Positions 1,289-43,302 of a DNA stretch of 64,000 nt are shown one piece after another; within the stretch, counting starts at the first letter, position 1, and each line of letters opens with the position of its first letter. Made by a program: the position numbers and the translations under genes. The notes under the pieces were generated by a model. It ran no database searches. It saw nothing but the letters and a program-made list of their open reading frames with translations, and was not told the origin of the DNA. Source of the DNA: a virus (taxonomy: Duplodnaviria; Heunggongvirae; Uroviricota; Caudoviricetes); the IMG/VR virus record IMGVR_UViG_2799112923_000001; one strand, written 5' to 3'.

Positions 1289-1317
1289 TTGACAAACAAA
1301 AAATAAAAAACTATAAT
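1289..1317 (+). promoter_or_regulatory. sigma70-like promoter CCATTGACAA-N17-TATAAT
   Basis: TTGACA 1289-1294, 17-nt spacer, TATAAT 1312-1317, upstream of HNH gene. Confidence 0.6.
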
Positions 1318-5285: not shown

Positions 5286-5612
5286 ATGACAAAATACATT
5301 ATTCTTCTATCCGCAGTAATGGCATTTGCTTGTAACTATGAATGTGAAGAACGCAAAATTGCGGCTCTTGAACGGATTGCGTCAGCATTAGAAAAACTAA
5401 ACAACAATTCGTATCATCCTAATGTTGTTGTGAATAGTTATAAAGCACCTGAGCCAACTATCAAGAAAACATACGATACAAAGATTAACGGCAGGTCTTT
5501 AAAAGCAGTTCCAACTGTTGATACAGAATGTATAGATGAATGTATGATGGAACTGTTGCCTTCAAGACGAGATGATTGTATTGAAACCAAGTGTGGAGGT
5601 GGAAATGACTAA
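5286..5612 (+). CDS. secreted small protein, Cys4 family member 4
   Basis: signal peptide MTKYIILLSAVMAFA; N-term CNYEC and C-term ECIDEC...DDCIETKC. Confidence 0.55.
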   Translation: MTKYIILLSAVMAFACNYECEERKIAALERIASALEKLNNNSYHPNVVVNSYKAPEPTIKKTYDTKINGRSLKAVPTVDTECIDECMMELLPSRRDDCIETKCGGGND

Positions 5613-5979
5613 ATACATAATTTTGTTAGTATTCTTCGGTTCTGTATTTGCTAATGCTTGTGATTACGATTGTAAAGCACAATTAAGACGAATCGCAGAT
5701 GCTCTTGAAATTATTGCTGGTAATATGGGAAACAAACCAACACCAAAAGCACCTGAACCAAAGAAAACAACAACTGAAGCAACAGTTGTAGCAGATAATT
5801 GGGGTAAGAATTTAAACCATTTAAATTTTGAACCACGAAATGACGAACCAACTGAGTTTGTATTTGATGATTTTGAAGTAGAAGATTCTTGTGAAGATAA
5901 ATGTAAGAAAAAGAATTATAGTGATTATACAAGAAATATGTGTATAAAGAATAATTGTAAGGAAGATGATGACTTTTGA
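5605..5979 (+). CDS. secreted small protein, Cys4 family member 5 (tandem paralog of 5286)
   Basis: GGAGGTGG SD before ATG 5605; MTKYIILLVFFGSVFA; CDYDC and C-term SCEDKC...MCIKNNC. Confidence 0.55.
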   Translation: MTKYIILLVFFGSVFANACDYDCKAQLRRIADALEIIAGNMGNKPTPKAPEPKKTTTEATVVADNWGKNLNHLNFEPRNDEPTEFVFDDFEVEDSCEDKCKKKNYSDYTRNMCIKNNCKEDDDF

Positions 5980-6304
5980 AGAATACGAACAAGCCTGTAA
6001 AGAATGTGGGCTAACAGTAATGGAATCTGATGTTTGGGGCCGTAGTCATTATGATTATGGTTATACTTACGAAGGATATAAGATTATATCCATACGAACA
6101 CCAGGTGGTAAATCATTTAGCAGTTATAATGTGGTAAAGAATACCCCAGTTATGGCATTTTTGCCATTATTTGATGACCCACTAAAACAGACCTGTATGA
6201 TTGCTGGTGATGTTCTTAAAAACAGAATATACTGGTCAATGAAATTTGTAAAGAATTTTAAAGTTCAGGAAAAAATAAAAGAATTAGATGATGATTTTAA
6301 TTAG
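5966..6304 (+). CDS. hypothetical protein
   Basis: 112-aa ORF ending LDDDFN. Confidence 0.45.
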   Translation: MMTFEEYEQACKECGLTVMESDVWGRSHYDYGYTYEGYKIISIRTPGGKSFSSYNVVKNTPVMAFLPLFDDPLKQTCMIAGDVLKNRIYWSMKFVKNFKVQEKIKELDDDFN

Positions 6305-6351
6305 TTGACAAATCGTCAGTAAATAACTATATTAAAAGAAAAGGAAACACT

Positions 6352-7360: not shown

Positions 7361-7810
7361 ATGGATAATAGAATTATAAAAGACATGCCTGAAATTTATG
7401 AAAAAGCAAAACCATACATTGATTATTTGGAATCATTGGGTTTTAAAACCAAGCATAATATGATGTATTTCAGTGCTGGTAATGAAGATAACTACGAATA
7501 CTTCAATGGATGGATGTATCCTGGTATAAAAGAAGATGATTTGGTTGTTGACCTTGTTAGTTTTACAGGTGAACTAAAACTTGAAATTTACAAGTTTAGA
7601 ATTATAAAAACACCAAAGAATTATTATGTTCGTGAAGGTGATAAAAATTATCCATTCATAATGATAAATGCTAGAAAAGATGATGCTTGGGAATCAAAGA
7701 TTGTAGATAATCTAAAAGATTTCAAGAAAGAAGTTGGTAATTATCTTAAAACATTGAAAACTTATAAAGAAAAGGTGAAACATTATGAACTGGAAAAAGA
7801 TTTTACCTAG
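7361..7810 (+). CDS. hypothetical protein
   Basis: AAGGAGAAATTATG SD; ends ELEKDFT. Confidence 0.5.
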   Translation: MDNRIIKDMPEIYEKAKPYIDYLESLGFKTKHNMMYFSAGNEDNYEYFNGWMYPGIKEDDLVVDLVSFTGELKLEIYKFRIIKTPKNYYVREGDKNYPFIMINARKDDAWESKIVDNLKDFKKEVGNYLKTLKTYKEKVKHYELEKDFT

Positions 7811-8759
7811 TCCAAACCCCTGGTATGAATACCGGAATGGTAATCACATTGTAAAGTTGTATAGTGATGGAACAAAAGTAAAAGAAACCATTGACCCAAA
7901 CGATGACCATTTTACTTATGAATTTCCTGAATCATTTGATTTAAAGATTACTGACTATTGTGATGCCGGTTGTGCTTATTGCCACGAAAATTCTACCACA
8001 AAGGGTAAACACGCCGATTTGAATAAACTATTACCAATGCTTGACACTATTAAGCCAGGTGTTGAAATTGCTATCGGTGGTGGTGATGCTACTTCTCACC
8101 CACAGATAAATTGGTTTATTTGTGAATGTAGAAAACGCGGTATTGTTCCTAACATTACAGTTAATCAAAAGCATTTAAAGAAATCTTTTGAATTTTTGAA
8201 TGCCTGTATGGTTAATAACTATATCGGTGGTATTGGTATATCATTAACTGACTCTACAAAGAGCGAAGATTTTACAAGAATTGCTAGATTGGGTCAGCAT
8301 GTAGTAATCCACACGATTGCTGGTATTTTAAAGCCCGAAGATTATAAGAGATTGTATGGGAAAAAGGTTCTTATTCTCGGATATAAGAATATCCGCAGAG
8401 GAAATGATAATTTAACCAAACACTCTGATGAAATCAAAGCAAACATTGAACAATTAAGAAAAGATTTACCAATGCTTGAAAAGAAATGTAAACTTCTTTC
8501 TTTTGATTGCCTTGGTATGGAACAATTACATCCAAAAGAAACATTGGGTATGCCAGATGATAAATTCAAATTGATTTATCAGGGTCATGACTACGATATG
8601 TTTGATAAGGACGGAAATATAACAGTATCTACAATGTTTGTGGATGCAGTTCAAATGAAAGTATCTAGGTCTTCTACAAGTGCTATGGATAAAAGATATT
8701 CATTCACAGGAAACGAAGATGTTAGAGAATTATTAGCCAAATCTTGTGAAGGTTATTAA
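7785..8759 (+). CDS. radical SAM protein (NrdG/QueE-like activase family)
   Basis: CxxxCxxC cluster ITDYCDAGCAYCHENSTT resembling the anaerobic RNR activase motif; AAGGTGA SD. Confidence 0.6.
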   Translation: MNWKKILPSPNPWYEYRNGNHIVKLYSDGTKVKETIDPNDDHFTYEFPESFDLKITDYCDAGCAYCHENSTTKGKHADLNKLLPMLDTIKPGVEIAIGGGDATSHPQINWFICECRKRGIVPNITVNQKHLKKSFEFLNACMVNNYIGGIGISLTDSTKSEDFTRIARLGQHVVIHTIAGILKPEDYKRLYGKKVLILGYKNIRRGNDNLTKHSDEIKANIEQLRKDLPMLEKKCKLLSFDCLGMEQLHPKETLGMPDDKFKLIYQGHDYDMFDKDGNITVSTMFVDAVQMKVSRSSTSAMDKRYSFTGNEDVRELLAKSCEGY

Positions 8760-9124
8760 TGTTTGAAGGTGATGTAACTGAATATTTCACACAAATTGAA
8801 TCAAACATATACAAATGCTTTGATTGGAGAAAAGACAGTAAAGAAGCATGTGAAATGTTCTGTACAATGTTTAACAGAATTAGAAACCTTTACAAGGTTG
8901 GTGAATTTGATATTTTAATGCGTTTATTTGACTGTTATGACCCGTTTATGAGTTGGGAAGATGGTGTTATTTGGAGATTACTGAAACTTATTAGATATGC
9001 TCCTTGGAATCAATACTATTATGCCAATATGAGTGATGAAGATTTAAGAAATTTGTGCGACAAACAACTTAAATTGTTCAAAAACGAATTAGCAGTTAAA
9101 CTTCTTGAAGGAGATTTTAAATGA
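8759..9124 (+). CDS. hypothetical protein (tandem paralog A)
   Basis: shares YAPWNQYYYANMSDEDL block with next gene. Confidence 0.5.
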   Translation: MFEGDVTEYFTQIESNIYKCFDWRKDSKEACEMFCTMFNRIRNLYKVGEFDILMRLFDCYDPFMSWEDGVIWRLLKLIRYAPWNQYYYANMSDEDLRNLCDKQLKLFKNELAVKLLEGDFK

Positions 9125-9537
9125 GTTTTCCGAGAGGTAAAAATAAGGGTATAATGGTTATGTTATCCGCATTTGAATTTGTTGCTGCTATTAAAAAACA
9201 AGATGAATTAAAGTGGATATTGCAGTTTGACGAAGAATCTAATGAAATGAAAGATTTCTTAAAATTAAATAAAAGAATCCGAAAACTGTATGTTGATAAC
9301 ATTTCAATGGATAAAGCAGTTGAGTTATTCCCAACTTATGAATTTAATACAGCATTTCCTTGGGGTTATTGTAATGAGATTGCTTATATAATAATGGCTC
9401 AATTAAAATATAAACCTTGGAATCAGTATTACTATTCACACATGAATAACGAGCGATTAACCCAAATGATTGACTGGGCATACAAAGAATACAGAAAAAG
9501 AGCTTTGGAAGAATCAATTACTCAGGATTTTGAGTGA
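9121..9537 (+). CDS. hypothetical protein (tandem paralog B)
   Basis: YKPWNQYYYSHMNNERL block; ends ITQDFE. Confidence 0.5.
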   Translation: MSFPRGKNKGIMVMLSAFEFVAAIKKQDELKWILQFDEESNEMKDFLKLNKRIRKLYVDNISMDKAVELFPTYEFNTAFPWGYCNEIAYIIMAQLKYKPWNQYYYSHMNNERLTQMIDWAYKEYRKRALEESITQDFE

Positions 9538-9558: not shown

Positions 9559-9586
9559 TTGACAATAGAATTGTAAAAACTATATT
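9559..9586 (+). promoter_or_regulatory. sigma70-like promoter CCATTGACAA-N16-TATATT
   Basis: TTGACA 9559-9564, TATATT 9581-9586. Confidence 0.55.
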
Positions 9587-10962: not shown

Positions 10963-10974
10963 GACTCCCCCAAA

Positions 10975-11011
10975 AAATCCATTGACAAAGTCAGTGGATT
11001 TTTCTATATTA
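10975..11011 (+). promoter_or_regulatory. composite module: terminator hairpin embedding -35 (TTGACA) + T-tract + -10 TATATT
   Basis: inverted repeat aaaatccattgac/gtcagtggatttt; TTGACA 10983-88, 17-nt spacer, TATATT 11006-11. Confidence 0.6.
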
Positions 11012-11432: not shown

Positions 11433-11783
11433 ATGGCAGCTGCTACCCCAGAACTAAAAGCAAGATTTAAAGAACTCGGTATCTTTAATGGTACATGGTC
11501 AGATGGTCATGAATCATTTGAAGTCGGAAAGGGTGGTTATTTTAATATCCACTCAATTAAGATTACACGATTTAAAGAAGATGATGGAAAATGGCGAAAA
11601 ATGGTTCAATATAAGCCAACTCGCTGGCATGGAAAATATGGCGGTGGTGGATATACTAACCAGTTTGAATATGACCAGTCCCTAGAAAAATTTAACGATG
11701 TTTGGGAACAGTTTATGCTTGGTTATAAGGAATACCAACAACTAAAACAAGAAAATTCTGTAAACCGAGATTTTGGAGAATAA
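11433..11783 (+). CDS. hypothetical protein (tandem paralog)
   Basis: shares IHSIKITRF...QFMLGYKEY with next gene; ends NRDFGE. Confidence 0.5.
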   Translation: MAAATPELKARFKELGIFNGTWSDGHESFEVGKGGYFNIHSIKITRFKEDDGKWRKMVQYKPTRWHGKYGGGGYTNQFEYDQSLEKFNDVWEQFMLGYKEYQQLKQENSVNRDFGE

Positions 11784-11785
11784 CT

Positions 11786-12205
11786 ATGGCAAAACTAGAT
11801 ATTAAAGCAAAAGAAGAACTCAAAAACCATTTGAAAGAACTAAACATCAAAAATGGTAAATGGGAAGCACCCGATGGTGATATTTACTATGTTTGCCATC
11901 AGGGAAAATTTTATATTCATACCATTCAAATTACACGAATCCCAGATGTATATGACCCTGAAGATAGACCGTGGAATTATAATGGTTCTAATTGGGATTG
12001 GATGAAGAAAGAAGGTTTAGATATTAGAGGTTCTAAACGAGAAGTTTGTTATGACAGAATTAAAGATGACGAAGGACGAAATCTTTATTGGATTGAATAC
12101 TCAACCATTGAAGAATTTGATGTTTTGTTTGACCAGTTCTTGTTAGGATATAAAGAATACAGAGTACTCGTTCAAAACGAAGCCATTAACAAAGATTTTG
12201 ATTAA
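11786..12205 (+). CDS. hypothetical protein (tandem paralog)
   Basis: IHTIQITRI...QFLLGYKEY; ends INKDFD. Confidence 0.5.
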   Translation: MAKLDIKAKEELKNHLKELNIKNGKWEAPDGDIYYVCHQGKFYIHTIQITRIPDVYDPEDRPWNYNGSNWDWMKKEGLDIRGSKREVCYDRIKDDEGRNLYWIEYSTIEEFDVLFDQFLLGYKEYRVLVQNEAINKDFD

Positions 12206-13332: not shown

Positions 13333-13977
13333 ATGATTGACCCACAAATGTATCTTGACATAGCAGCTAATAACATTGACCCAATGGTTTTTGAATTTGA
13401 CGATTTGGGTGATGGTCCTGGCCCTATGCTTGGTGGAATGGGAGTGAAAATCACTGGGACTTATAATGGACAACCATTTAGTGTAAACCGTGGTCCTTGT
13501 GTTCGCTACCAACAAATGAAAACTGCCGAAGAAATAGAGGCAGAAAGACAAGCCGAGATAGAAGCAGAACAAGCAAGAATTAAATTAGAATATGAAAGAT
13601 GGACTAATATATTCCAGTCTAACCATTATACAACTGATTTGAATTTCATTTTTGGAAAATTGAATAAAGAACAGTTGAAATGGGTAAAACATATTCTTGA
13701 TACTGACGAAGATGCGACATATATTTACGCAGGTTCAAAAGATAGAAGTGAGTTTTTGAGTATAAACGATGTTTGTGCCCATGTAACGAAATCAAGAATA
13801 AGAAATGGTAAACTTGAATGTGAAATAGAATTTGATTTTACCGACCCTGGGGTAAAACTATTCCGAAACTTACAGAATGGTTTCAAACCAAAACTAAATC
13901 TAAACACAGTTTTAGATTATGACCTTAAAAATCCAACTAAACAAAACTTAAAATTCATTTGTTTGGAGTTTCTATGA
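13333..13977 (+). CDS. hypothetical protein
   Basis: 214-aa ORF. Confidence 0.5.
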   Translation: MIDPQMYLDIAANNIDPMVFEFDDLGDGPGPMLGGMGVKITGTYNGQPFSVNRGPCVRYQQMKTAEEIEAERQAEIEAEQARIKLEYERWTNIFQSNHYTTDLNFIFGKLNKEQLKWVKHILDTDEDATYIYAGSKDRSEFLSINDVCAHVTKSRIRNGKLECEIEFDFTDPGVKLFRNLQNGFKPKLNLNTVLDYDLKNPTKQNLKFICLEFL

Positions 13978-14420
13978 TAATTAAACGGAATGAATTTACT
14001 TCACTCATTGAAAATGGTCTAACCAAAGAAGAAAAGAAGTTGCTCAATAATGTGGCTGGTTTAAGGCCACATTTTGTTGTTTTATTATCCTTGCTAGTAG
14101 ATTATTGGTGTGAATCGTGGGTGAATTATACGAACCATCAAGAACCCAGTGTTCAAGTTTCAATAGAACCATATATTCCCGAAAACATTAAGCAGTATTA
14201 TACTGACTCGTCTGCAAATGGGAAATATCATAAACTCAGATGGAATTTCTCTAAAGTTCCACTACATTTAATAGAACAGTATTGTACAGAATTACGCAAG
14301 AATATGTTCCAGTATATAATGGAGCATAAAGATGCAGTAAATTGGGATGAAATCTATTTACACAAAATTATTGAAAATATACTTAGAATTACTAAATTGA
14401 ATATAGATGATTTTTCGTAA
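13974..14420 (+). CDS. hypothetical protein
   Basis: ATGA overlap with upstream stop; GGAG SD. Confidence 0.45.
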   Translation: MIIKRNEFTSLIENGLTKEEKKLLNNVAGLRPHFVVLLSLLVDYWCESWVNYTNHQEPSVQVSIEPYIPENIKQYYTDSSANGKYHKLRWNFSKVPLHLIEQYCTELRKNMFQYIMEHKDAVNWDEIYLHKIIENILRITKLNIDDFS

Positions 14421-14832
14421 CTTAATAAAATTCAAAAAAAGAAAGAATGAAGAAGCTCCAATTCCTATGGAATGGGATGTACAAATCGCAGCATTAGCAA
14501 GAGAACTAAATTGCGTTTTTGTTCCTAGAGATAATTTAGACCCATCAACAGGAAAAATTTATTTCTGTAATAAACCTTATGATTTTACCCATTCATTCGC
14601 CTATAATGCTATCAAGAGTTGGTATGTGGTTTGTGGTTGGGTTAGGAAAGATGGCAAATATAATCTGATTGTTAAGAATGTGAATAACATTGTTAAAAAT
14701 AAAAATATGTGTATTGAATACAAGTTTAAGAACTACAATGATTTCAAAAAAGAATATATCAAACATTTAAAGGCTTTTGACACGAATAAGCAAGAATACG
14801 ATTTACACTTAATCAATATGGACTTAAAATGA
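14407..14832 (+). CDS. hypothetical protein
   Basis: ORF, start uncertain. Confidence 0.4.
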   Translation: MIFRNLIKFKKRKNEEAPIPMEWDVQIAALARELNCVFVPRDNLDPSTGKIYFCNKPYDFTHSFAYNAIKSWYVVCGWVRKDGKYNLIVKNVNNIVKNKNMCIEYKFKNYNDFKKEYIKHLKAFDTNKQEYDLHLINMDLK

Positions 14833-15161
14833 CTAATCAAGAACTGTTAAATAAAATAGCTGAAGATTTTCCTGAATTAGATACCCATAGGTCTAGTTCA
14901 GGAAATGAGATTTATTTTATTGGAATTTATGGTGAATCATTTGCACTGATTATGGAAGAATGTATTCAGCACTATATTATTAGATGTGAAGGATTACAAA
15001 TAAGAGATGGTTATATTTGTGGTGTAAAAGCATCGTCTTATAAACCAAATGAACCACCTGACTATAATGAATGTAAAGAACATATCAAGAAAGTTTTAGA
15101 AGAATATAAGTTATTGCGAGTTAAAAGACTAGAAAATAAAGCCAACGAAGATTTCAAATGA
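14829..15161 (+). CDS. hypothetical small protein (DF-terminus series)
   Basis: ends NEDFK; junction GAAGATTTCAAATGA. Confidence 0.5.
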   Translation: MTNQELLNKIAEDFPELDTHRSSSGNEIYFIGIYGESFALIMEECIQHYIIRCEGLQIRDGYICGVKASSYKPNEPPDYNECKEHIKKVLEEYKLLRVKRLENKANEDFK

Positions 15162-15490
15162 CTAAAACTAAACGAGAATTAGATGAATTATTACATAAAT
15201 CCCATAAATGGTGTAAAGTCTATATGGGCTTTTGTTCATTTGAGTATTGTAAAGAAATAAAGAAATATGAAAACATTTTAACATATATTTTAGTAACTGA
15301 GAATACTGTTGAATTTTCTTGTCAATTAGTTGGTGCTGTAAAAAGACATGTTTTAATTGAAAGAACTTTTAAATTTGATAACATACCAAATAAAAAATTC
15401 ATTGATTGGACTCTTTCTCAGGCAGAAATTACATTTAAGAAAGGGCTAGAAATTTTTAATCTTAACCTTATAGACCAGGATTTCAAATGA
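15158..15490 (+). CDS. hypothetical small protein (DF-terminus series)
   Basis: ends DQDFK; ATGA overlap. Confidence 0.5.
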   Translation: MTKTKRELDELLHKSHKWCKVYMGFCSFEYCKEIKKYENILTYILVTENTVEFSCQLVGAVKRHVLIERTFKFDNIPNKKFIDWTLSQAEITFKKGLEIFNLNLIDQDFK

Positions 15491-15873
15491 GTAAACACAA
15501 ACGAATTATTAAATTCCCATTAGCAAATAACTATTCAAAGAAAGCGGTTGAAAACCTAATTAAAGCAGCTGGGTTTATTCCTGACGATATGGATGATGAT
15601 GGTTGGGTTATTCCAAATGGAATTGGCGACTCATACTATGACCAGGTATTTCAAGTTGGAACAAAATATATGACTGTTGCTACTGGTTATGAAATTGAGA
15701 CTGATATTAAAGGTGGTTCATATATTTCATTTGCTGCTGGTGAAGGTTCAAAAATTACATACAAATTACTCCCTGAAGATATGTTAAAAGAACTTATTAA
15801 CAGAGCTTGGAAAATGTATAAAGACGCATTGATTGATTTGAATGAAGTAAACGCAAGCAAGGATTTCCAATGA
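15487..15873 (+). CDS. hypothetical protein (tandem paralog)
   Basis: ends ASKDFQ; PEDMLKELINRAW block shared with next gene. Confidence 0.5.
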   Translation: MSKHKRIIKFPLANNYSKKAVENLIKAAGFIPDDMDDDGWVIPNGIGDSYYDQVFQVGTKYMTVATGYEIETDIKGGSYISFAAGEGSKITYKLLPEDMLKELINRAWKMYKDALIDLNEVNASKDFQ

Positions 15874-16253
15874 AACCAAAGTTCGTAACTAACATAACAA
15901 AGAAAGAAGTTGCAAAACTTTTGAAGAAACGCGGTTTCGTAGCCTATAATGGTAATGATGACTGGTGTATTCCAACAGATTATGTTGATTATTGGCACGG
16001 TCGTTGTTTCTCAATGGGTAACAAATATCTTTCTTATGCTGTAGATTACAGAATCAGTGAAGATAATGAAAATGTTTATGGCATTTGTATGGTTCGTGAT
16101 GGTGATGCGAAAATACCATTTAAAATGATACCACAAGAAATGTTAGAAGAACTGATTGATAAAGTTTGGCAGTTGTATGAACATGCTCAAGTTCATTTAA
16201 AGAAAGAAAAGGCTAGTTTGGTGATTAGAAAAGCCCAGGAGGATTTTAAATGA
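15870..16253 (+). CDS. hypothetical protein (tandem paralog)
   Basis: PQEMLEELIDKVW; ends AQEDFK. Confidence 0.5.
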   Translation: MKPKFVTNITKKEVAKLLKKRGFVAYNGNDDWCIPTDYVDYWHGRCFSMGNKYLSYAVDYRISEDNENVYGICMVRDGDAKIPFKMIPQEMLEELIDKVWQLYEHAQVHLKKEKASLVIRKAQEDFK

Positions 16254-16570
16254 AAATAGATGATGTTTTTAACAATTTAGAAAAAGATGGTTGGGATTTG
16301 AGAATTGGTGGTTATATGAAAAATGAGTACTGTATTTCCAATGAAATACATAATGGAATTGGTATTTTCATAGAAAAACCAAATGAAGACTCATTTTGTA
16401 TAACTTGTAAAAAATGGGAATCCATAAGTATAGAACTTTATGATAATAAACAAATTAGATTTCGTGAATTACCAAAAAATTATGTAGAATACATTAACAA
16501 CCTAGCCAGTACAATGTATAAAAAAGGGCTAATGAAATATAATTTGAAAAAGATTCAAGAGGATTTTTAA
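16250..16570 (+). CDS. hypothetical small protein
   Basis: ends IQEDF. Confidence 0.5.
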   Translation: MKIDDVFNNLEKDGWDLRIGGYMKNEYCISNEIHNGIGIFIEKPNEDSFCITCKKWESISIELYDNKQIRFRELPKNYVEYINNLASTMYKKGLMKYNLKKIQEDF

Positions 16571-17362
16571 ATGATACATTTAGTTTGTTTGACTAAACCA
16601 TATAATGATAACGATTTTAAACTTTGGTATAAATGGCACAAAGCATTAGGAATTGACAAGATTCATGTATTCCATAATGATAGTGATTTGAGAATTGACC
16701 GATATGTAAATCCACCAGATACATATCAGTATATTCATGGTTGGCCTGACCAGTGGAATCTATTCAATAAAATTCTCAATGAAAATATTTTGAAATTTGA
16801 TAATCAAGACATTGTAATGTTCCTTGATGATGACGAATTTCTTTGGTATGATATGAACTTGCCATTGGATGCCGCTCTAATGAAACAGTTTAGGATGTTG
16901 GATTGTGTATTAGTACCGCAGATTTTGTTATCAACAAAAGAAATTGGTGAACAGAGAAGTAGAAGTTTAATTGAAAACTCTTTTTATCGCAGAGCTGACC
17001 TAAGTAACCAGGGAAAATGTATATTATTGTATAACCAGGGAAACGAATACGATTTTACGAAAGAAGAACAGAATGAAAGAGGTCATGTTCCATTCATAAA
17101 TGGTATGCGTTATTCCGATGTAGTCGGTAGTGATTGTTCTAAAACCACCTATGGATTGGTCAAGTACAACGCACCTGTGCGTTTATATCATTATCATATA
17201 AAATCACTAGACGATTGGAAACACAAACTTGCACGTGGTTCTGCTGCGAATGAAGTCCAATTCTATGACGAAGATATAACAAAGAATTTATGGTATGGTG
17301 GATATGATGTTATTGACCTTACTATGTTGAATACTGCGAAGAAATTGGGTATATTACGATGA
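16571..17362 (+). CDS. putative glycosyltransferase (GT-A-like, DxD motif)
   Basis: VMFLDDDEFLW DxD-type motif and GT-A-like N-terminal region; weak. Confidence 0.35.
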   Translation: MIHLVCLTKPYNDNDFKLWYKWHKALGIDKIHVFHNDSDLRIDRYVNPPDTYQYIHGWPDQWNLFNKILNENILKFDNQDIVMFLDDDEFLWYDMNLPLDAALMKQFRMLDCVLVPQILLSTKEIGEQRSRSLIENSFYRRADLSNQGKCILLYNQGNEYDFTKEEQNERGHVPFINGMRYSDVVGSDCSKTTYGLVKYNAPVRLYHYHIKSLDDWKHKLARGSAANEVQFYDEDITKNLWYGGYDVIDLTMLNTAKKLGILR

Positions 17363-17727
17363 ACGAAAAAACTTACAAAGAAATAATTGACATGTTTAAT
17401 CTACCCCAGTATAGTGAAAAAATCACCAGTGATGGTGGATATTTTATTAAGGGTAATTGGTTTCAATCTATATGTGGTTATCGTTCTTATAAACGATTAA
17501 CAAAGAGAAATATCAGAACAGAAGATGATAGAAAGTTGTATAACAATAAAAACTACAACTGGCCTGCCGGTTCTATGATTTTATTTTCTATGGAAAGAGG
17601 TCAATTTGAAGAAGGTTTTTGGGCTACCAGGAAAGAAGATGCCATTAAAATGTTATCCAAACGATTGAAAGAATATAAAGAACGTCAAATTAAAACTCAA
17701 CTGAAGAATATAGAAAAGGACTTCTAA
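17359..17727 (+). CDS. hypothetical small protein
   Basis: ends IEKDF. Confidence 0.5.
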   Translation: MNEKTYKEIIDMFNLPQYSEKITSDGGYFIKGNWFQSICGYRSYKRLTKRNIRTEDDRKLYNNKNYNWPAGSMILFSMERGQFEEGFWATRKEDAIKMLSKRLKEYKERQIKTQLKNIEKDF

Positions 17728-18053
17728 TGACCCCAACTGAATTTGCCGAACTATGTGAAAGTATTGGATTAGTTCCAGCTACATTGTATATTCCAGGGTC
17801 AAGAGATGTATGTTTATATCAATTACCTGTGGATTTAGAAAATCCAATGAAAAATTATAGTTCAGTTATGACTTCATATTCAAAATCATTTGGTTATAGA
17901 ATTTGTTTGATTGATGAATATGGTGAAAAGAACATTGGTTATTGGTTAGTCACTGATAGTGAAATTAAAGAACGAGCCTACGAATTACAGAAACAAATTA
18001 AAGATTTACGAATTAAACAAAATCTTGAAAATATAAAGAGGGACTTCAAATGA
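17727..18053 (+). CDS. hypothetical small protein
   Basis: ends IKRDFK. Confidence 0.5.
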   Translation: MTPTEFAELCESIGLVPATLYIPGSRDVCLYQLPVDLENPMKNYSSVMTSYSKSFGYRICLIDEYGEKNIGYWLVTDSEIKERAYELQKQIKDLRIKQNLENIKRDFK

Positions 18054-18364
18054 CTGCAAGAGAAATGATTACTATTACAAATGGTGTAAATCGTAAATCC
18101 GATGAAGAAATGATTGCTAGAATTGAAAAACGAATAGAAGAAAATGCTAGTAAAGGTAAAACCTATGTTTCTATTCCACAAGATAGAATGACCAGAACTA
18201 TCTTTGAGCATTTTGAACAAAAGGGGTTTTCATTTAAAGACAGTCATTGTGCTGGAATGACATTTGTTCAAATTTCTTGGGCAGACGCAGAACCATTAAC
18301 AGATTTTGATTTTAAATCCTATTTAATGGAGAGAAAACTAAGGAGCATTGAACATGACTTTTGA
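18050..18364 (+). CDS. hypothetical small protein
   Basis: ends IEHDF. Confidence 0.5.
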   Translation: MTAREMITITNGVNRKSDEEMIARIEKRIEENASKGKTYVSIPQDRMTRTIFEHFEQKGFSFKDSHCAGMTFVQISWADAEPLTDFDFKSYLMERKLRSIEHDF

Positions 18365-18653
18365 TTTCAATAACATTCCATTAAATGATAAAAGGACTAT
18401 TAAAAACTTCTGCCGGCTATGTGTAGAACAGTCTGTGAATTTGGAAAATACGAAGAAAAATGGTTATTACAAAATGAGAGCCATTTTTACACCAAGTCCA
18501 TATCTTACTATGTTTTTTAATAAATTCCAAATAGCAATAGGTAAAGAAGATTATACATTGGTTTGGCCTGAAGAATCTATGCCAAAACTGTTAAAATTGG
18601 GCAAAGAAGTCCAAATGTACGAAAAATTACAGGAAATCAAGAAAGATTTCTAG
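18348..18653 (+). CDS. hypothetical small protein
   Basis: ends IKKDF. Confidence 0.5.
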   Translation: MNMTFDFNNIPLNDKRTIKNFCRLCVEQSVNLENTKKNGYYKMRAIFTPSPYLTMFFNKFQIAIGKEDYTLVWPEESMPKLLKLGKEVQMYEKLQEIKKDF

Positions 18654-18674: not shown

Positions 18675-18688
18675 TATTTTTACAAGAA

Positions 18689-18722
18689 TGCAGTTGACAA
18701 CAACTGCATTTTTTACTATATT
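18689..18722 (+). promoter_or_regulatory. composite terminator-hairpin/promoter module
   Basis: gcagttgacaacaactgc hairpin, T-run, TTGACA 18694-99, N17, TATATT 18717-22. Confidence 0.6.
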
Positions 18723-39335: not shown

Positions 39336-40184
39336 ATGCAAATACAAAACATAAAAAGTCAATTTGATAATAAAATGGTGCCCTTGGAATTAACCGAGGG
39401 TGTTATGAACAATGTAATTAAATGTATTAAAGAACCTATTACTTGCCCAAATAAAGATAACATTCCACAATGGAAGTTTTGTACTGTAAAGGGTAATGTT
39501 CGTTGTAACGATAATATGGATAAAACCAACATTCTAATTCTTGACTATGATGACGCAGGTTATTCATACCAAGAATTTGAAGATAGATTTAGAGGTTACA
39601 AATACTTCTTACATACAAGTTATTCTTATAATGGAACAAATAGTAAGTTTCGTGTGTTATTATTCCTTGACCAGGAGTATGAAATAGATAGACTATTCTG
39701 TAAAACCAGTCAAGCCATTTATAGCCCATATACTTTATTGTTACAGTATTTTAATCATGTTGATAAAGCAAGTTTTGTAAAATCTCAATTCTTTAAAGTC
39801 CCAGCAGTCAAAGACAAAACTAGCCCATACTATTACAACATTCACGATGGCGAATTGTTCTCATTGAATAACATTGATACTTTCATGTTCGCTTATACAG
39901 AATGTAAGCAGTTTTTGGAAAACGAAAAACGAGATAGAGAAGTTAAATCGCAAGTATTCAAAACCCAATATACAGGTGATTTGACAAAGGCCTTGGAGTT
40001 CGTCAAACGCAAAATGGAAGAAGCTCAACCAGGTGAAAGACATAATGCTGTGTTTGGATTGGGTGCATTCTTCCAGCATTGCGGTGGCGATTATGACACA
40101 TTCTCACGAATTAGACCAACCTGGGCTGATAAGAAATTTGATAACCAAATGAAACGATTAGAAAAAGAATGGTTTAAACTATGA
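39336..40184 (+). CDS. hypothetical protein (possible primase-like; weak)
   Basis: ILILDYDD acidic motif; no firm family assignment. Confidence 0.45.
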   Translation: MQIQNIKSQFDNKMVPLELTEGVMNNVIKCIKEPITCPNKDNIPQWKFCTVKGNVRCNDNMDKTNILILDYDDAGYSYQEFEDRFRGYKYFLHTSYSYNGTNSKFRVLLFLDQEYEIDRLFCKTSQAIYSPYTLLLQYFNHVDKASFVKSQFFKVPAVKDKTSPYYYNIHDGELFSLNNIDTFMFAYTECKQFLENEKRDREVKSQVFKTQYTGDLTKALEFVKRKMEEAQPGERHNAVFGLGAFFQHCGGDYDTFSRIRPTWADKKFDNQMKRLEKEWFKL

Positions 40185-40531
40185 CAATAGAAGAACTTTT
40201 ATCACTAAAAGATTATGGTAGAAATATAGGTTATCTTGTAAATGATAGTTTTAATAATAAATTCTGTTTTACATTAAGATACCCTGAATGTAACAAATAC
40301 GATGTTGTGTTTGATTATACCTATCACGATAGAATTACTTATAGTGTTTCTACCCAAACTGCTGAAGATATAATCCATAATTTTAGTGATTATGATGGTA
40401 ATGTAGCAGAATACAATTATAAAGCTGTACCATTAGAAGTAGCCAAAAATCAAATAAAAGAAAAATGGATAGAATATAAGAACTATCTTAACGATATTGA
40501 AGTCAATAAAATTGGAGAAGATTTTCAATGA
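40181..40531 (+). CDS. hypothetical protein
   Basis: ends IGEDFQ. Confidence 0.5.
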   Translation: MTIEELLSLKDYGRNIGYLVNDSFNNKFCFTLRYPECNKYDVVFDYTYHDRITYSVSTQTAEDIIHNFSDYDGNVAEYNYKAVPLEVAKNQIKEKWIEYKNYLNDIEVNKIGEDFQ

Positions 40532-40823: not shown

Positions 40824-42629
40824 ATGAAGAAGTTATTTCTCATTTTAATGGTGGCAATTAGTGCCGCTTTTGGTGGTCCTGGATTGGCAGATGGTGCTGC
40901 GAAATTCGTGGGTAACATTACTACCCAAGGACAAGTTCGTAGTGATTTCACCAGTCTATGGAATCAAATTACAGCAGAAAACGAATGTAAATGGGCATCT
41001 ATTGAAGGAACCCAGGGTCGCTATAACTGGAGTGGTTGTGATGCGGCTTATAATTGGGCAAAGAACAATGGAGGTCATTTCAAGTTCCACGCACTCGTTT
41101 GGGGTTCTCAATATCCTAACTGGTTGAATGGTAAATCTGCCGAAGATACAAAGAAAGCAATTACTAATTGGATGGATGCTGTAAAGAATCATTATCCTGA
41201 TTTGGAAATGATTGACGTGGTAAACGAAGCAATTAAGTCAGGTGGCAAATACCACTCCAATTATGGCTCACAAGGCAATAACAACATTATTGCTGCGTTG
41301 GGTGGTGATAACGGAAACTATGAGTTCGTAGTTACCGCATTTAAGATGGCGAGAGAAAGATGGCCCGATGCTATCTTGATTTACAATGATTATAATACTG
41401 TTCAATGGCAAAAGAATGAAGGTATTGACCTTATTCAAAAGTTGAAAAAACAGGGTGCCCCAGTAGATGCTTATGGTCTCCAGGCCCACGATATGCAGAA
41501 AGCAGGTGGTGGTAATGGTGGTACAGGTGGTGGCGGTTCTTGTTTAGACATTAACCAACTAAAATCTACCATTGAAGAAATTTGGACTAAAACCCAAATG
41601 CCTATGTTCATTAGTGAATATGATATTGCTACCGAAGATGACAATGACCAGAAGAATTGTTACCAACAACAGATTTCTTACTTTATGGAAAATGAACATA
41701 TTGCTGGTATTACTCTTTGGGGTTATATCTATGGTGCTACTTGGACTACAAATGGTAACTCCGGTATCATTAAGAACGGACAAGATAGACCTGCTATGAC
41801 CTGGTTGAAATCTTATTTGAAATCCAATAAGGGTGTAAACTCTACTGGTTTGCCAACTGGTGATGGTGTAACGATTGTTGAACCAGAACCACAAAAACCA
41901 TTTAAGGGTGAAGCATTTAATATAGCATTACCTATTGAAGCAGAAGATTTTGATATTCCAGGTAAGGGAGCAGGCAATAATTCCTATTCAGTTAGTGGTG
42001 ATTGTAATGACACATGGAATACTGAATATCGTAAGGGAACAACTGTAAAGATTGGTGAAAAGAATGGTGGTCTAGTTTTGGGTTGTAATCCAACTGGGAA
42101 CTATTTCCAATACACCATTAAGGTTCCTGAAGCAGGTAATTACTATGTTTACGCAACAGTAGCAGCCGAAGGAGAAGGTGCTATCTTATTCAAGATTGGA
42201 GATAAAGCAATTACAGATACATTGAAATATACCGGTGATTCCTGGACTAAATTTGATAAAATTAAGGGTCAAGCAAAATTTGATGCTACTGGTGAACAAA
42301 TTTTAACATTAGAGATTGCTAAGGGTTATATTGACATAGATAAATTTGAATTTATGGTTACAGATTGTGCACCTGGTGATGCTCGTTGTGGCGGACCTTC
42401 CTATAATTGTGAAGCCTATCCTGATGACCCAATGTGTAGAACTGTGTTAATCAATGGCAACCCCGATATGCCAAAACTCCAGCACTTCACAGTATTTGAC
42501 GTACGAGGCGTTTTCTTGGGTGTGGTTAGTGGTTATACCCCTGACCTAGCCGCTGGCTTCCTTAGATTGCCTCCTGGTCAGTACTTGCTTAAAGATAGTC
42601 GCGGTTCAATATACAAAATTAAAAAATAA
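40824..42629 (+). CDS. secreted GH10 family xylanase with CBM6/35-like module and T9SS-type C-terminal sorting-domain-like tail
   Basis: signal peptide; GH10 blocks NECKWASIEG, HALVWGSQYPNW, IDVVNEA, ISEYDI; beta-sandwich CBM region (EAEDFDIPG...NYYVYATVAAEG...YIDIDKFEF); Cys-rich linker; C-term FTVFDVRGVFLG...LRLPPGQYLLK..SIYKIKK. Confidence 0.8.
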   Translation: MKKLFLILMVAISAAFGGPGLADGAAKFVGNITTQGQVRSDFTSLWNQITAENECKWASIEGTQGRYNWSGCDAAYNWAKNNGGHFKFHALVWGSQYPNWLNGKSAEDTKKAITNWMDAVKNHYPDLEMIDVVNEAIKSGGKYHSNYGSQGNNNIIAALGGDNGNYEFVVTAFKMARERWPDAILIYNDYNTVQWQKNEGIDLIQKLKKQGAPVDAYGLQAHDMQKAGGGNGGTGGGGSCLDINQLKSTIEEIWTKTQMPMFISEYDIATEDDNDQKNCYQQQISYFMENEHIAGITLWGYIYGATWTTNGNSGIIKNGQDRPAMTWLKSYLKSNKGVNSTGLPTGDGVTIVEPEPQKPFKGEAFNIALPIEAEDFDIPGKGAGNNSYSVSGDCNDTWNTEYRKGTTVKIGEKNGGLVLGCNPTGNYFQYTIKVPEAGNYYVYATVAAEGEGAILFKIGDKAITDTLKYTGDSWTKFDKIKGQAKFDATGEQILTLEIAKGYIDIDKFEFMVTDCAPGDARCGGPSYNCEAYPDDPMCRTVLINGNPDMPKLQHFTVFDVRGVFLGVVSGYTPDLAAGFLRLPPGQYLLKDSRGSIYKIKK

Positions 42630-42714: not shown

Positions 42715-43302
42715 ATGTTAGACTTAACTAATGAAAATGTTTATTTCGTGAGTGATACGCATTTTAACCATCACAAACTGTGTTCGGAATATCCTGATAG
42801 ATTTGATAGATTTAGAACTTACAAATATGTAAACGAAATGAACGAAGATATGGTAGATAAATGGAATAAGACAGTTACGAAAGACGATGTTGTAATTTTC
42901 TTGGGTGATTTCTGTTATGGCAGACCATTTCATAAACTACCACAAATGGCAAAAGAATTTTATCAAAGATTGAATTTCAAAGGCATGATTTGGGTTGAAG
43001 GAAACCACGATGATGTTATACGAAAAGAATTTAGTAATCTTTTACCAAATTTGAAGTTCAAATACAAAGACAACATTTATCTTTGCCAGCACGAACCATA
43101 TTACGATAATCCACCATTCCTATTAGCCAATAGAGATGCTAATGTTTTGGTTCACGGTCATACCCATTCTACTAGACCAACCTCTAAAGTAGATAATCTA
43201 ATTCAAAACAATGTATGCTGGGAAGCATGGTACAGACCTGTTCATATTGACGAACTTGTTATAAATAATATGAATAATGTAACCAATGGAGTTTTGAAAT
43301 GA
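42715..43302 (+). CDS. calcineurin-like metallophosphoesterase (paralog of 12733)
   Basis: DTHFNHH, GDF, GNHDD, HGHTHS; shared NNVCWEAWYRPVHIDEL tail. Confidence 0.7.
   Translation: MLDLTNENVYFVSDTHFNHHKLCSEYPDRFDRFRTYKYVNEMNEDMVDKWNKTVTKDDVVIFLGDFCYGRPFHKLPQMAKEFYQRLNFKGMIWVEGNHDDVIRKEFSNLLPNLKFKYKDNIYLCQHEPYYDNPPFLLANRDANVLVHGHTHSTRPTSKVDNLIQNNVCWEAWYRPVHIDELVINNMNNVTNGVLK

Follow-up and report, generated by a model that had tools for sequence, protein, structure and literature searches.

The DNA considered here, a stretch of 64,000 nucleotides from a virus of the class Caudoviricetes (IMG/VR record IMGVR_UViG_2799112923_000001; in the following, the window), raises the question of why dozens of small and otherwise unrelated proteins end in the same short peptide. 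A sequence-only reading of the window had described about 40 proteins with a common C-terminus, [IL]-x-[KE]-D-F, and had traced this peptide to an invariant stop-start junction between neighbouring genes, which might double as a Shine-Dalgarno (SD) sequence, encode a peptide signal or act as a recombination linker. The element in question is both a protein tail, here called the KDF tail, and the DNA that joins one gene to the next. As set out below, the tail peptide itself is under purifying selection, and the DNA encoding it is a site of whole-gene gain and loss between strains.

A C-terminal tail on small, unrelated proteins

The common C-terminus is more widespread than first described, and all ranges listed in the sequence-only reading contain genes that carry it. 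Among the 117 open reading frames (ORFs) of at least 40 aa on the plus strand, 47 have Asp-Phe (DF) in their last six residues, against 2.6 expected from the frequency of internal DF. The tail set was derived by excluding ends in DFF or DFL (family-B DNA polymerase (PolB), a gp33-like protein and one other protein) and the end of a CCA-adding-enzyme-like protein, and by adding ORF 59580-59918, which the ORF filter had missed. This gives about 44 tail-bearing genes in the window, or about 40% of the genes in the region (Table 1). The strict form of the junction, RRGAYTTYNAATGA, is found 22 times on the plus strand and never on the minus strand, with 0.23 +/- 0.49 expected from dinucleotide-preserving shuffles. 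In the 10 kb beyond the 3' end of the window the tail is carried by 15 of 18 genes, and a genome encodes dozens of tail proteins, probably more than 100.

The pentapeptide originally given as the motif is present but too short. Aligned on DF, the tails give an ungapped logo of 16 residues, K-x6-[KR]-L-x2-I-x2-D-F, in which, counting from Asp as position 0, K(-14) is followed by a hydrophobic residue at -10, [KR](-7), [LIM](-6), [ILMV](-3), a polar residue at -2, mostly Lys or Glu at -1, D(0) and F(+1). Lys(-14) is found in 39 of the 44 window tails and in 27 of 33 tails of related phages, and K/R at -7 in 28 of these 33; the preference at -10 is moderate, with V or I in 18 of the 44. In the 72 non-redundant tails from the window and its relatives, DF is followed by 0, 1, 2, 3, 5 or 7 residues in 27, 35, 4, 3, 1 and 2 cases. 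The CCA-adding-enzyme-like protein (43299-45203; ...FPDDFQ) was not counted as a tail bearer because of Pro at -2 and because its relatives do not keep a Lys at -14.

The share of proline and glycine is 1.5% in the tails and 8.2% in the background, a depletion of about fivefold, while lysine and arginine are enriched about twofold (27.6% against 13.7%). The 4-3-4 hydrophobic spacing sets K(-14), -10, -6, -3 and F(+1) on one face of a helix, with K(-14), K/R(-7) and D(0) flanking the hydrophobic face. A membrane-targeting amphipathic helix of the MinD/FtsA type was considered and rejected, as the mean hydrophobicity is -0.38 and the tail holds only three to four apolar residues. In the paralogs 15870 and 15487 (tail genes are named here by their first nucleotide) a one-heptad (7-residue) indel lies within the helix, yet Lys stands exactly 14 residues before Asp in both; the two Lys residues come from non-homologous positions, and the indel has thus been compensated.

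The same logo is obtained from related phages with other gene content (L002, L003, L005, L009, L065 and L067). The tail system is found in relatives as distant as about 67% PolB identity, where 14-39% of ORFs carry it, and is absent from relatives at 56% identity or less, in which DF-tailed ORFs amount to just 0-6%. A neighbouring gene, 14407-14832, ends in ...HLINMDLK in the window and in ...LTEVEKDFK in its ortholog in the related L060, which reads as a tail that has decayed (Phe to Leu) in one strain.

Aside from the tail, the carriers are ORFans, for which two or more folds are predicted. Their lengths lie between 60 and 205 aa, and one low-complexity basic protein is among them. After trimming of the tail, BLAST and iterative hidden Markov model searches left nearly all of them as singletons, so the description of the carriers as otherwise unrelated stands. 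Detectable paralogy is limited to the four adjacent pairs 8759/9121, 11433/11786, 15487/15870 and 50132/50488, as well as 40181, which joins 15487/15870. Searches of Pfam, PHROGs and PADLOC revealed no family common to 20 window members or to the 72 non-redundant members. The AlphaFold2 (AF2) model of 15870 (predicted local distance difference test (pLDDT) score 84) begins with a helix, continues with five strands and closes with a C-terminal helix of 38 residues, the last 16 of which are the tail, while that of 18050 (pLDDT 74) has a different alpha-beta-alpha-beta-beta core, a disordered linker and a low-confidence tail helix. Fold searches with both models against the PDB, and with 15870 against BFVD, gave no match at E<=0.001; weak likenesses were to YbjN or T4 MotA for the 15870 model and to S8-N or R3H for the 18050 model. 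Full-length searches with the two proteins returned relatives at 51-95% identity only.

Tail genes also diverge about three times faster than their neighbours. Compared with L060, to which the region is about 80-90% identical at the DNA level, they show a median amino acid identity of 72% and a nonsynonymous divergence (dN) of 0.189, against 89% and 0.057 for non-tail neighbours. Compared with L002 (80% PolB identity), tail genes at syntenic positions either escape detection or reach 25-40% identity once the tail is left aside, with neighbours at 63-90%, and only the key tail positions persist. Mosaicism occurs within genes as well as at gene junctions: the first 41 residues of a 96-aa metagenomic protein (P0021) are nearly those of 18050, while its second half is unrelated and the KDF tail is missing.

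Peptide, junction and recombination joint

In the sequence-only reading the junction creates the peptide, but comparison of the tails at the nucleotide and protein levels reverses the direction of cause. The nucleotide information is 3-periodic: the first two positions of a codon carry 0.5-2.4 bits and the third carries 0.02-0.25 bits, and the pattern extends up to the codon of Lys(-14). Synonymous codons are used freely: AAA in 27 and AAG in 12 cases for Lys(-14), GAT in 35 and GAC in 9 for Asp, TTT in 31 and TTC in 13 for Phe, and unrelated codons for the I, L, V or M at -3. In addition, 21 of the 44 tails lack an ATGA or TAATG overlap with the next gene, and gaps of 47, 72, 99, 128 and 201 nt occur. 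The uncoupled tails end in ...DFN, DFT, DFGE, DFDD, DFDDR or DFSDEC, the residues after DF (N, T, S, D, GE, DD, DDR or SDEC) being free. As tails are present on genes without an overlapping downstream start, the junction is not the source of the peptide. Rather, the junction is near-invariant because the tail codons GAY TTY abut the next ATG via TAA-TG or NAA-TGA, and it is a consequence of the tail and of translational coupling. Of the other suggestions of the sequence-only reading, conservation beyond the needs of an SD is borne out by the same data, which also favour a shared C-terminal peptide signal.

The conservation of the junction has three layers, namely the selected C-terminal peptide, the ATGA/TAATG overlap and the tuning of wobble positions for an SD. 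In coupled arrays the last tail codons meet the next start as (A/G)A(A/G)-GAY-TTY-NAA-TGA or ...TTY-TAA-TG, and a bias towards wobble G in the K/E codon places AGGA or GAGG 6 nt 5' of the ATG as its SD. The wobble position of the -1 codon is G in 13 of 23 coupled but only 3 of 21 uncoupled junctions (Fisher p=0.005), and GAG accounts for 4 of 9 Glu codons at the coupled -1 position against 8% genome-wide. A purine-rich, SD-like core (AGGA, GAGG or AAGG) lies 6 nt before the ATG in 18 of the 23 coupled junctions, within the 5-9 nt that separate an SD from an overlapping start in translational coupling. The idea that the junction doubles as an SD is right to this extent; the role is real but secondary, and it explains only a part of the conservation.

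A purely translational junction, in which SD, spacer and ATGA overlap were selected and the K/E-D-F peptide were a by-product, would account for these cores, for a wobble bias that is seen only in coupled junctions and for the non-coding GGAGATTTCTAATGA, which acts as a ribosome-binding site (RBS) at 24936-24950. As the primary cause it is largely refuted and retains hardly any probability. Apart from the uncoupled tails, GG is missing from about half of the strict, coupled junctions, which have AAGAT or GAGAT instead, and the free-standing SD of the phage is TAAGGAGAA, not GAYTTY. Moreover, the 3-periodic conservation with its free wobbles reaches 42 nt 5' to the Lys codon across unconserved bases. 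The non-coding stretch that contains this RBS of the next gene, between the thyX stop and the following start (24935-24950, TGGAGATTTCTAATGA), is a tail-type junction without a tail gene and probably the scar of a cassette deletion. A -1 frameshift site was rejected as well: TTT-AAA-TGA is not an X-XXY-YYZ heptamer, and the sequence is found in only about a quarter of the junctions.

Coupling could also be served by the nascent peptide, if the tail slowed termination at the overlapped stop from within the exit tunnel and thereby promoted re-initiation. Few invariant residues at a fixed distance from the C-terminus are reminiscent of the arrest peptides TnaC and SecM, 62 of the 72 non-redundant tails have 0 or 1 residue past DF, and half of the junctions are start-stop overlaps. 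In ribosome arrest, however, the invariant residues stand at a strictly fixed distance from the P-site codon, while 0-7 residues follow DF; with the longer extensions of 2-7 residues the register at the peptidyl-transferase centre would change. Before gaps of 47-201 nt the tail is no less conserved, and its heptad-like hydrophobic pattern points to the surface of a folded helix. Arrest is accordingly regarded as most improbable.

At the strain level, the proposal of a recombination linker is directly supported. L060 and L061 are 99% identical and differ by a 630-nt block of exactly two tail genes; comparison of three junction sequences places the crossover inside aGGATTT...ATGA. Relative to L060 the window holds an extra tail gene, 21378-21698; here the crossover falls within GAYTTTGARTGAG. 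The differences among L067, L068 and L069 are blocks of 236, 279, 282, 331, 619 and 1748 nt, the breakpoints of which share 14-40 nt of junction sequence, and one of these exchanges joined an FF-type to a DF-type junction. In these comparisons at least ten whole-gene indels have their crossover in the repeat of tail and junction, where the sequences overlap by 14-40 nt; indels are also seen at plain TAATGA or RBS junctions. The repeated 12-40 nt of tail and junction sequence provides the homology for in-frame deletion, insertion and swapping of whole genes.

Dispersed repeats with a comparable effect have been described in T4-type phages as promoter-early/stem-loop (PeSL) elements, which mediate a modular shuffling of ORFans (Arbiol et al. 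2010, PMC2839356; Comeau et al. 2014, PMC4122927). Like PeSL, the tail junctions are short repeats at the boundaries of ORFans in hyperplastic regions, coincide with the indel boundaries of close genomes and accompany whole-gene insertions, deletions and replacements. Unlike PeSL, which combine an intergenic sigma70-like promoter with a stem-loop terminator, the tail repeat contains neither promoter nor hairpin and is coding, being made of the last tail codons and the start-stop overlap. Exchange therefore preserves the reading frame, the tail and translational coupling, and the homology is maintained through selection on a peptide.

Frequent recombination from junction to junction could also mean that there is no common partner of the tails. 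A single ancestral gene would then have given rise to the set by tandem duplications, the helix being its slowest-evolving part (through self-association or a stabilising role) and the DNA being homogenised by recombination. The adjacent paralog pairs, residual paralogy in the arrays of related phages with other tails, and the similar build of many members (95-130 aa, with a helix at the N-terminus, then strands, then a long helix at the C-terminus) are in line with such a history. It is nonetheless considered rather unlikely, as the core folds are predicted to differ between the two AF2 models and the size spread is wide and includes a low-complexity basic protein. Nor is gene conversion alone sufficient to account for the tail, as it would have kept the wobble positions constant as well, whereas these vary freely. 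As judged from the logo, self-association is less likely than docking to another protein: an antiparallel symmetric pair would set [KR](-7) facing itself, and the g-e' positions of a parallel pair would be non-complementary.

Expression and possible function of the tail

The tail arrays lie in units bounded by strong sigma70-type promoters (TTGACA-N17-TATATT), most of which are set within a hairpin plus T-run. These composite terminator/early-promoter cassettes occupy gaps and are elements separate from the tail repeat; TTGACA stands in or beside the hairpin loop, followed by the T-run and by TATATT 17 nt downstream, an arrangement described as PeSL in the hyperplastic regions of T4-type phages (PMC2839356, PMC4122927). 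The T4 late box TATAAATA is depleted in the window (3 against 9.5 expected), and none was found upstream of the tail arrays. Promoter type and the lack of late boxes before the arrays imply that the tail genes are most likely early genes.

A basic helix of about 16 residues, poor in proline and glycine, would thus be displayed by small, putatively early ORFan proteins of different folds, and such a helix may plug a variable repertoire of proteins into one hub protein of phage or host. The reading preferred here, for which the odds appear even, is that the tail is a portable docking helix for a putative common partner, and its DNA a joint for in-frame cassette shuffling. A wider version is offered more tentatively, in which the tail would be a proteome-scale address tag, at least one third of the genes would encode hypervariable early effectors on one hub, and the DNA would be the connector of cassettes. 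Docking is given more weight than degron, packaging, diverged-paralog and arrest explanations.

Several points weigh against docking. The hydrophobic positions -10 and -6 are conserved only moderately and the amphipathic moment is barely above that of shuffled tails (0.31 against 0.25), so that the helix might act as a cap that improves solubility or stability in a general way, and not as a specific ligand. The KDF set could also be one very old, much diverged paralog family with a C-terminal conserved segment; other lineages of the clade have array-specific tails (GILKIP, LLEEIDD, IRKAAxxW), and some of their arrays are recognisable paralog families. Both AF2 models are monomers built on shallow multiple sequence alignments. 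Finally, the tail profile matches nothing beyond the phage group and therefore yields no functional annotation to lean on. A word-indexed collection of 5.8 billion proteins returned a single match, to a close relative; 1.84 billion representatives returned only a repetitive protein of 1451 aa, taken as noise; and the PDB returned five sub-threshold matches (E 2.4-8.4), taken as chance. With about 24 bits, the motif holds too little information for searches of such scale.

Docking by a terminal peptide would resemble two T4 systems, the clamp-binding C-termini and the capsid-targeting peptide of internal proteins. The unrelated proteins gp43, gp33 and gp55 carry interchangeable C-terminal peptides that dock on the sliding clamp (Geiduschek & Kassavetis 2010, PMC2988020). 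As in the KDF set, a short C-terminal peptide stands behind a variable linker on unrelated proteins of a T4-type phage; it addresses one hub, as is proposed for the KDF tail, and both motifs end in D-F or F-F. By this analogy the clamp, the gene of which lies outside the window, is an attractive candidate for the partner. The clamp motif is, however, "hydrophobic and acidic", about six residues long and limited to a handful of replication and transcription proteins (PMC2988020), whereas the KDF tail is a net basic, predicted helix of 16 residues with a near-invariant Lys(-14) and a polar residue before Asp, on at least 44 ORFans. KDF tails do not conform to [ST]-L-D-F-L-[FY] or L-x-x-F-F, as the two positions before Asp (-2 and -1) are polar or charged and Phe is followed by K/E/Q or a stop, while PolB, the gp33-like protein and the methyltransferases of the window do. 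Nor does the tail follow the clamp in its distribution: the relatives at 56% PolB identity or less, in which the tail system is absent, keep the LxxFF end of PolB. Since the tail is basic and the clamp-type end persists in relatives without KDF, a lineage-specific putative partner fits better than the clamp.

In T-even phages, diverse internal proteins share a capsid-targeting sequence (CTS; Rao & Black 2010, PMC3012670), and there, as in the KDF set, only a short terminal peptide is conserved on small, fast-evolving proteins. The tail might accordingly be a C-terminal analogue that directs small anti-defence proteins into the prohead for co-injection, and the capsid of a phage with a genome of about 400 kb would be roomy enough. 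The CTS is an N-terminal address tag of about 10 residues that is removed by the prohead protease and found on few proteins per phage (PMC3012670), whereas the KDF tag is C-terminal, without an evident cleavage site and far more numerous. A prohead-protease site in the tail was rejected, as Glu stands at -4 in 11 and at -1 in 12 of the 44 tails, with no [LI]-x-E at a fixed position. The early-type units, devoid of the TATAAATA box, argue weakly against tail proteins in the virion, and 44 or more cargo species in 64 kb, in arrays that run past the window, would be unprecedented. Packaging is for these reasons held to be unlikely.

An equally low probability is assigned to a degron, by which a protease or adaptor would clear the early ORFans at a set stage. 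The M16 peptidase of the window would be one conceivable candidate; its gene is kept in tail-bearing relatives, in a search that reached close relatives only. A C-terminal tag on many presumably early proteins, exposed in the models on a helix or past a flexible linker, would also suit this role. Bacterial C-terminal degrons such as the ssrA-type LAA and the Lon and FtsH tags are short, non-polar and unstructured, whereas the tail is highly charged and helical, with a negative mean hydrophobicity. In addition, DF can be followed by up to 7 residues, and the strictly spaced Lys 14 residues upstream would be left unexplained.

The docking helix may be compared with the poxvirus ankyrin/PRANC F-box-like proteins, in which a variable target-binding part is combined with a constant C-terminal element and Skp1/SCF is the partner. 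Both sets would be large and rapidly diversifying, with a constant C-terminal plug into one machine. PRANC families belong to eukaryotic viruses and have recognisable homologous domains, whereas in the KDF set the constant part is a 16-residue helix and the variable parts are without detectable homology. If docking holds, the phage would possess an adaptor-and-hub arsenal comparable to the viral F-box/PRANC families but built on a linear motif, and the tag DNA with the next start codon would be a standard connector that couples protein function and genome plasticity in one element.

For T4-type phages, both shared terminal address peptides and repeat-mediated shuffling of ORFans have been described; what was not found in the literature is a C-terminal tag of 16 residues that marks about 40% of the genes of a region and whose coding DNA is also an in-frame recombination connector. 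Small early ORFans are abundant in phage genomes and obscure in function and origin. The tail marks dozens of them with one selected peptide and thereby gives experiments one point of entry to an entire class of dark-matter genes, while its junction provides a concrete mechanism of modular gene turnover that keeps frame, tag and coupling intact, extending the PeSL idea from an intergenic regulatory repeat to a coding connector.

Other C-terminal motifs, the phage and its probable host

The GEFFE, DEFFE and EGFFE ends of the methyltransferases, which the sequence-only reading had regarded as related to KDF, are distinct. The three methyltransferases ([IL]xxFFE) and an ORFan of 107 aa end in [IL]-x-x-F-F-[EA], which is of the same clamp type as the PolB end GLDDFFV, and the FFE ends are kept in relatives as GLNDFFE, PLTEFFE and GLSEFFE. 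These ends suggest that the methyltransferases and the ORFan ride on the sliding clamp, and in the case of the methyltransferases would point to replication-coupled methylation. The genes at 36181-36573, 36577-37206, 37345-38295 and 38402-39325 follow an order that resembles T4 genes 33-59-32, and the 130-aa gp33-like protein of this trio ends in SILDFLN, like the clamp epitope of T4 gp33. The gp32-like single-stranded DNA-binding protein (...DDFFSKLSNM) and the adjacent DHH/RecJ-like phosphoesterase (...DEFMNKLQGVK) have another C-terminal motif in common, D-[DE]-F-[FM]-x-K-L.

In relatives with a PolB identity of 47-51%, on contigs of 49 kb to 415 kb, small genes likewise stand in arrays, and the peptides that their products share at the C-terminus are different ones (...P.GILKIP..., ...LLEEIDD and ...IRKAAxxW/Y). 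The phages of this clade seem generally to provide arrayed small genes with C-terminal tails that are specific to the family.

Table 1. KDF tails, cassettes and selected genes of the window, and arrays with other tails in related phages
Feature	Gene or region	Tail	Strand	Tail sequence and remarks
Weak/atypical tail	5572-5979	5929..5979	+	TRNMCIKNNCKEDDDF; -14 not Lys
Tail	5966-6304	6251..6304	+	KNFKVQEKIKELDDDFN; 47-nt gap, uncoupled downstream
Tail	7361-7810	7757..7810	+	KTYKEKVKHYELEKDFT
Tail	8759-9124	9071..9124	+	KLFKNELAVKLLEGDFK; ATGA junction into 9121
Tail	9121-9537	9484..9537	+	KEYRKRALEESITQDFE; then 72-nt gap
Tail	11433-11783	11727..11783	+	KEYQQLKQENSVNRDFGE
Tail	11786-12205	12152..12205	+	KEYRVLVQNEAINKDFD; then separate SD TAAGGAGAA
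Variant tail	13974-14420	14367..14420	+	...ITKLNIDDFS; Ile at -14
Tail	14829-15161	15108..15161	+	KLLRVKRLENKANEDFK; ATGA junction
Tail	15158-15490	15437..15490	+	KKGLEIFNLNLIDQDFK; ATGA junction
Tail	15487-15873	15820..15873	+	KDALIDLNEVNASKDFQ; ATGA junction
Tail	15870-16253	16200..16253	+	KKEKASLVIRKAQEDFK; ATGA junction; AF2: 38-residue C-terminal helix
Tail	16250-16570	16520..16570	+	KKGLMKYNLKKIQEDF; ATG directly after TAA
Tail	17359-17727	17677..17727	+	KERQIKTQLKNIEKDF; TAATG junction
Tail	17727-18053	18000..18053	+	KDLRIKQNLENIKRDFK; ATGA junction
Tail	18050-18364	18314..18364	+	KSYLMERKLRSIEHDF; AF2: disordered linker, then tail helix
Tail	18354-18653	18603..18653	+	KEVQMYEKLQEIKKDF; then 99-nt gap with PeSL-like promoter
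Tail	19921-20310	20257..20310	+	KEKIIEAKIDTIQEDFE; ATGA junction
Tail	20307-20924	20874..20924	+	KNLQVTDKITEINKDF; TAATG junction
Tail	20924-21391	21338..21391	+	KLLEEQTRLEELQDDFE; left breakpoint, one-gene indel against L060
Tail	21378-21698	21645..21698	+	KYSHRQEAYKNINKDFE; right breakpoint, one-gene indel against L060
Tail	24947-25429	25379..25429	+	KEMKVKENLKKVQNDF
Tail	25419-25775	25716..25775	+	KRLEYQHKLNEIKGDFDDR; 3 residues past DF
Tail	31458-31817	31764..31817	+	KEKLVNDSLEKLQKDFK; ATGA junction
Tail	31814-32221	32168..32221	+	KLKQASKVVQDAKSDFK; ATGA junction
Tail	32218-32637	32584..32637	+	KMDEYGAKLYEIKEDFE; ATGA junction into DNA methyltransferase gene
Tail	40181-40531	40478..40531	+	KNYLNDIEVNKIGEDFQ; ATGA junction
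Tail	50132-50488	50438..50488	+	REFLALEKEATVNKDF; Arg at -14; TAATG junction
Tail	50488-50853	50800..50853	+	KHYMTENISQKIEKDFE; then 128-nt gap
Tail	50982-51284	51234..51284	+	KVFANLCDISELQKDF; TAATG junction
Tail	51284-51658	51605..51658	+	...LYEDLKKDFE; Leu at -14; ATGA junction
Tail	53647-54231	54178..54231	+	ATGA junction into dUTPase gene
Variant tail	57471-57743	57681..57743	+	RTYEIILKYIQTQRDFSDEC; 4 residues past DF
Tail	57733-57972	57919..57972	+	KKFDNLINQLKANSDFT; then 201-nt gap
Tail	58174-58731	58678..58731	+	KLYNEYNKLDEIKEDFE; ATGA junction
Tail	58728-59087	59037..59087	+	KREKIIKKENELRRDF; TAATG junction
Tail	59087-59617	59564..59617	+	KKDKVDAELHRIKQDFE
Tail	59580-59918	59868..59918	+	KKNLQENLLKSIQKDF
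Tail	61605-61946	61890..61946	+	KLKSSKDLLNKIQEDFDD
Tail	61939-62226	62176..62226	+	KEQCEAKRLDDVQKDF; TAATG junction
Tail	62226-62522	62469..62522	+	KKEQTKQLIKNLKEDFN
Tail (60-aa ORF)	62524-62706	62653..62706	+	KESKVKKLLDAIKKDFQ; ATGA junction; strain indel breakpoint (L067 against L068)
Tail	62703-62999	62946..62999	+	KQNQVDELIEKANEDFR; ATGA junction; cassette presence varies between strains
Tail	62996-63382	63332..63382	+	KQIDEYERLKKIKEDF
Terminator/early-promoter (PeSL-like) cassette	10973-11010			
Terminator/early-promoter (PeSL-like) cassette	18684-18722			
Terminator/early-promoter (PeSL-like) cassette	38336-38371			
Terminator/early-promoter (PeSL-like) cassette	50084-50125			
Terminator/early-promoter (PeSL-like) cassette	59947-59985			
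Terminator/early-promoter (PeSL-like) cassette	63893-63931			
Further composite cassette	1289-1317			
Further composite cassette	6305-6333			
Further composite cassette	9559-9586			
PolB	26730-29060		+	
DNA methyltransferase, N6/N4 (PF01555)	29292-29990		+	
DNA methyltransferase, N6/N4 (PF01555)	29987-30727		+	
DNA methyltransferase, N6/N4 (PF01555)	32634-33371		+	
UvsX	33711-34628		+	
gp41-type helicase	34756-36171		+	
33-59-32-like gene trio	starts 36181, 36577, 37345		+	
GH10 xylanase	40824-42629		+	N-terminus signal-peptide-like
M16 (insulinase/pitrilysin-type) peptidase	52544-53647		+	among tail genes; conserved in close relatives
107-aa ORFan	56861-57184			clamp-type end
Arrays with other tails, L012	14811-17127, 18299-20142			
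Arrays with other tails, L018	14009-17094, 18685-22396			
Array with other tail, L010	15255-17176			

The source of the window is a deeply branching T4-like phage of the rumen with a genome of about 400 kb. All genes of the window are on the plus strand, and its GC content is about 33%; an Rnl1-type RNA ligase, ThyX and a dUTPase are encoded in addition to the genes listed. Near-identical sequence is present on scaffolds of 396-409 kb in European Nucleotide Archive (ENA) metagenome assemblies (WILK20-1) and on IMG/VR contigs, so the phage is an abundant, uncultured jumbo phage. The protein encoded at 63397-63864 by itself accounts for 282 indexed blocks. GenBank phages gave no DNA or protein match to the region or to the 15870 protein, and the identity of the window PolB to that of cyanomyophages is only about 32%. 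Scans for tRNAs and Rfam families were both empty.

The GH10 xylanase is an auxiliary metabolic gene product, and it matches over its full length, at 72-74% identity, solely proteins of Fibrobacter metagenome-assembled genomes from rumen and hindgut. Because of this exclusive resemblance the host of the lineage is probably Fibrobacter, phages of which have, to our knowledge, never been isolated.

UvsX begins at position 73 of the RecA profile, and just 5' of it lies a strongly conserved ORF of 48 aa (33515-33661; ...LSTNCISVNLLLSGKIQGRN); UvsX thus seems to be split or interrupted, with the same arrangement across all relatives. In L009 (10001-13716) the PolB gene is split: about 1.9 kb lie between the parts for its first 511 aa and its last 92 aa, and this insert, which holds an ORF of 257 aa, probably represents an intron or an intein-like element carrying a homing endonuclease.

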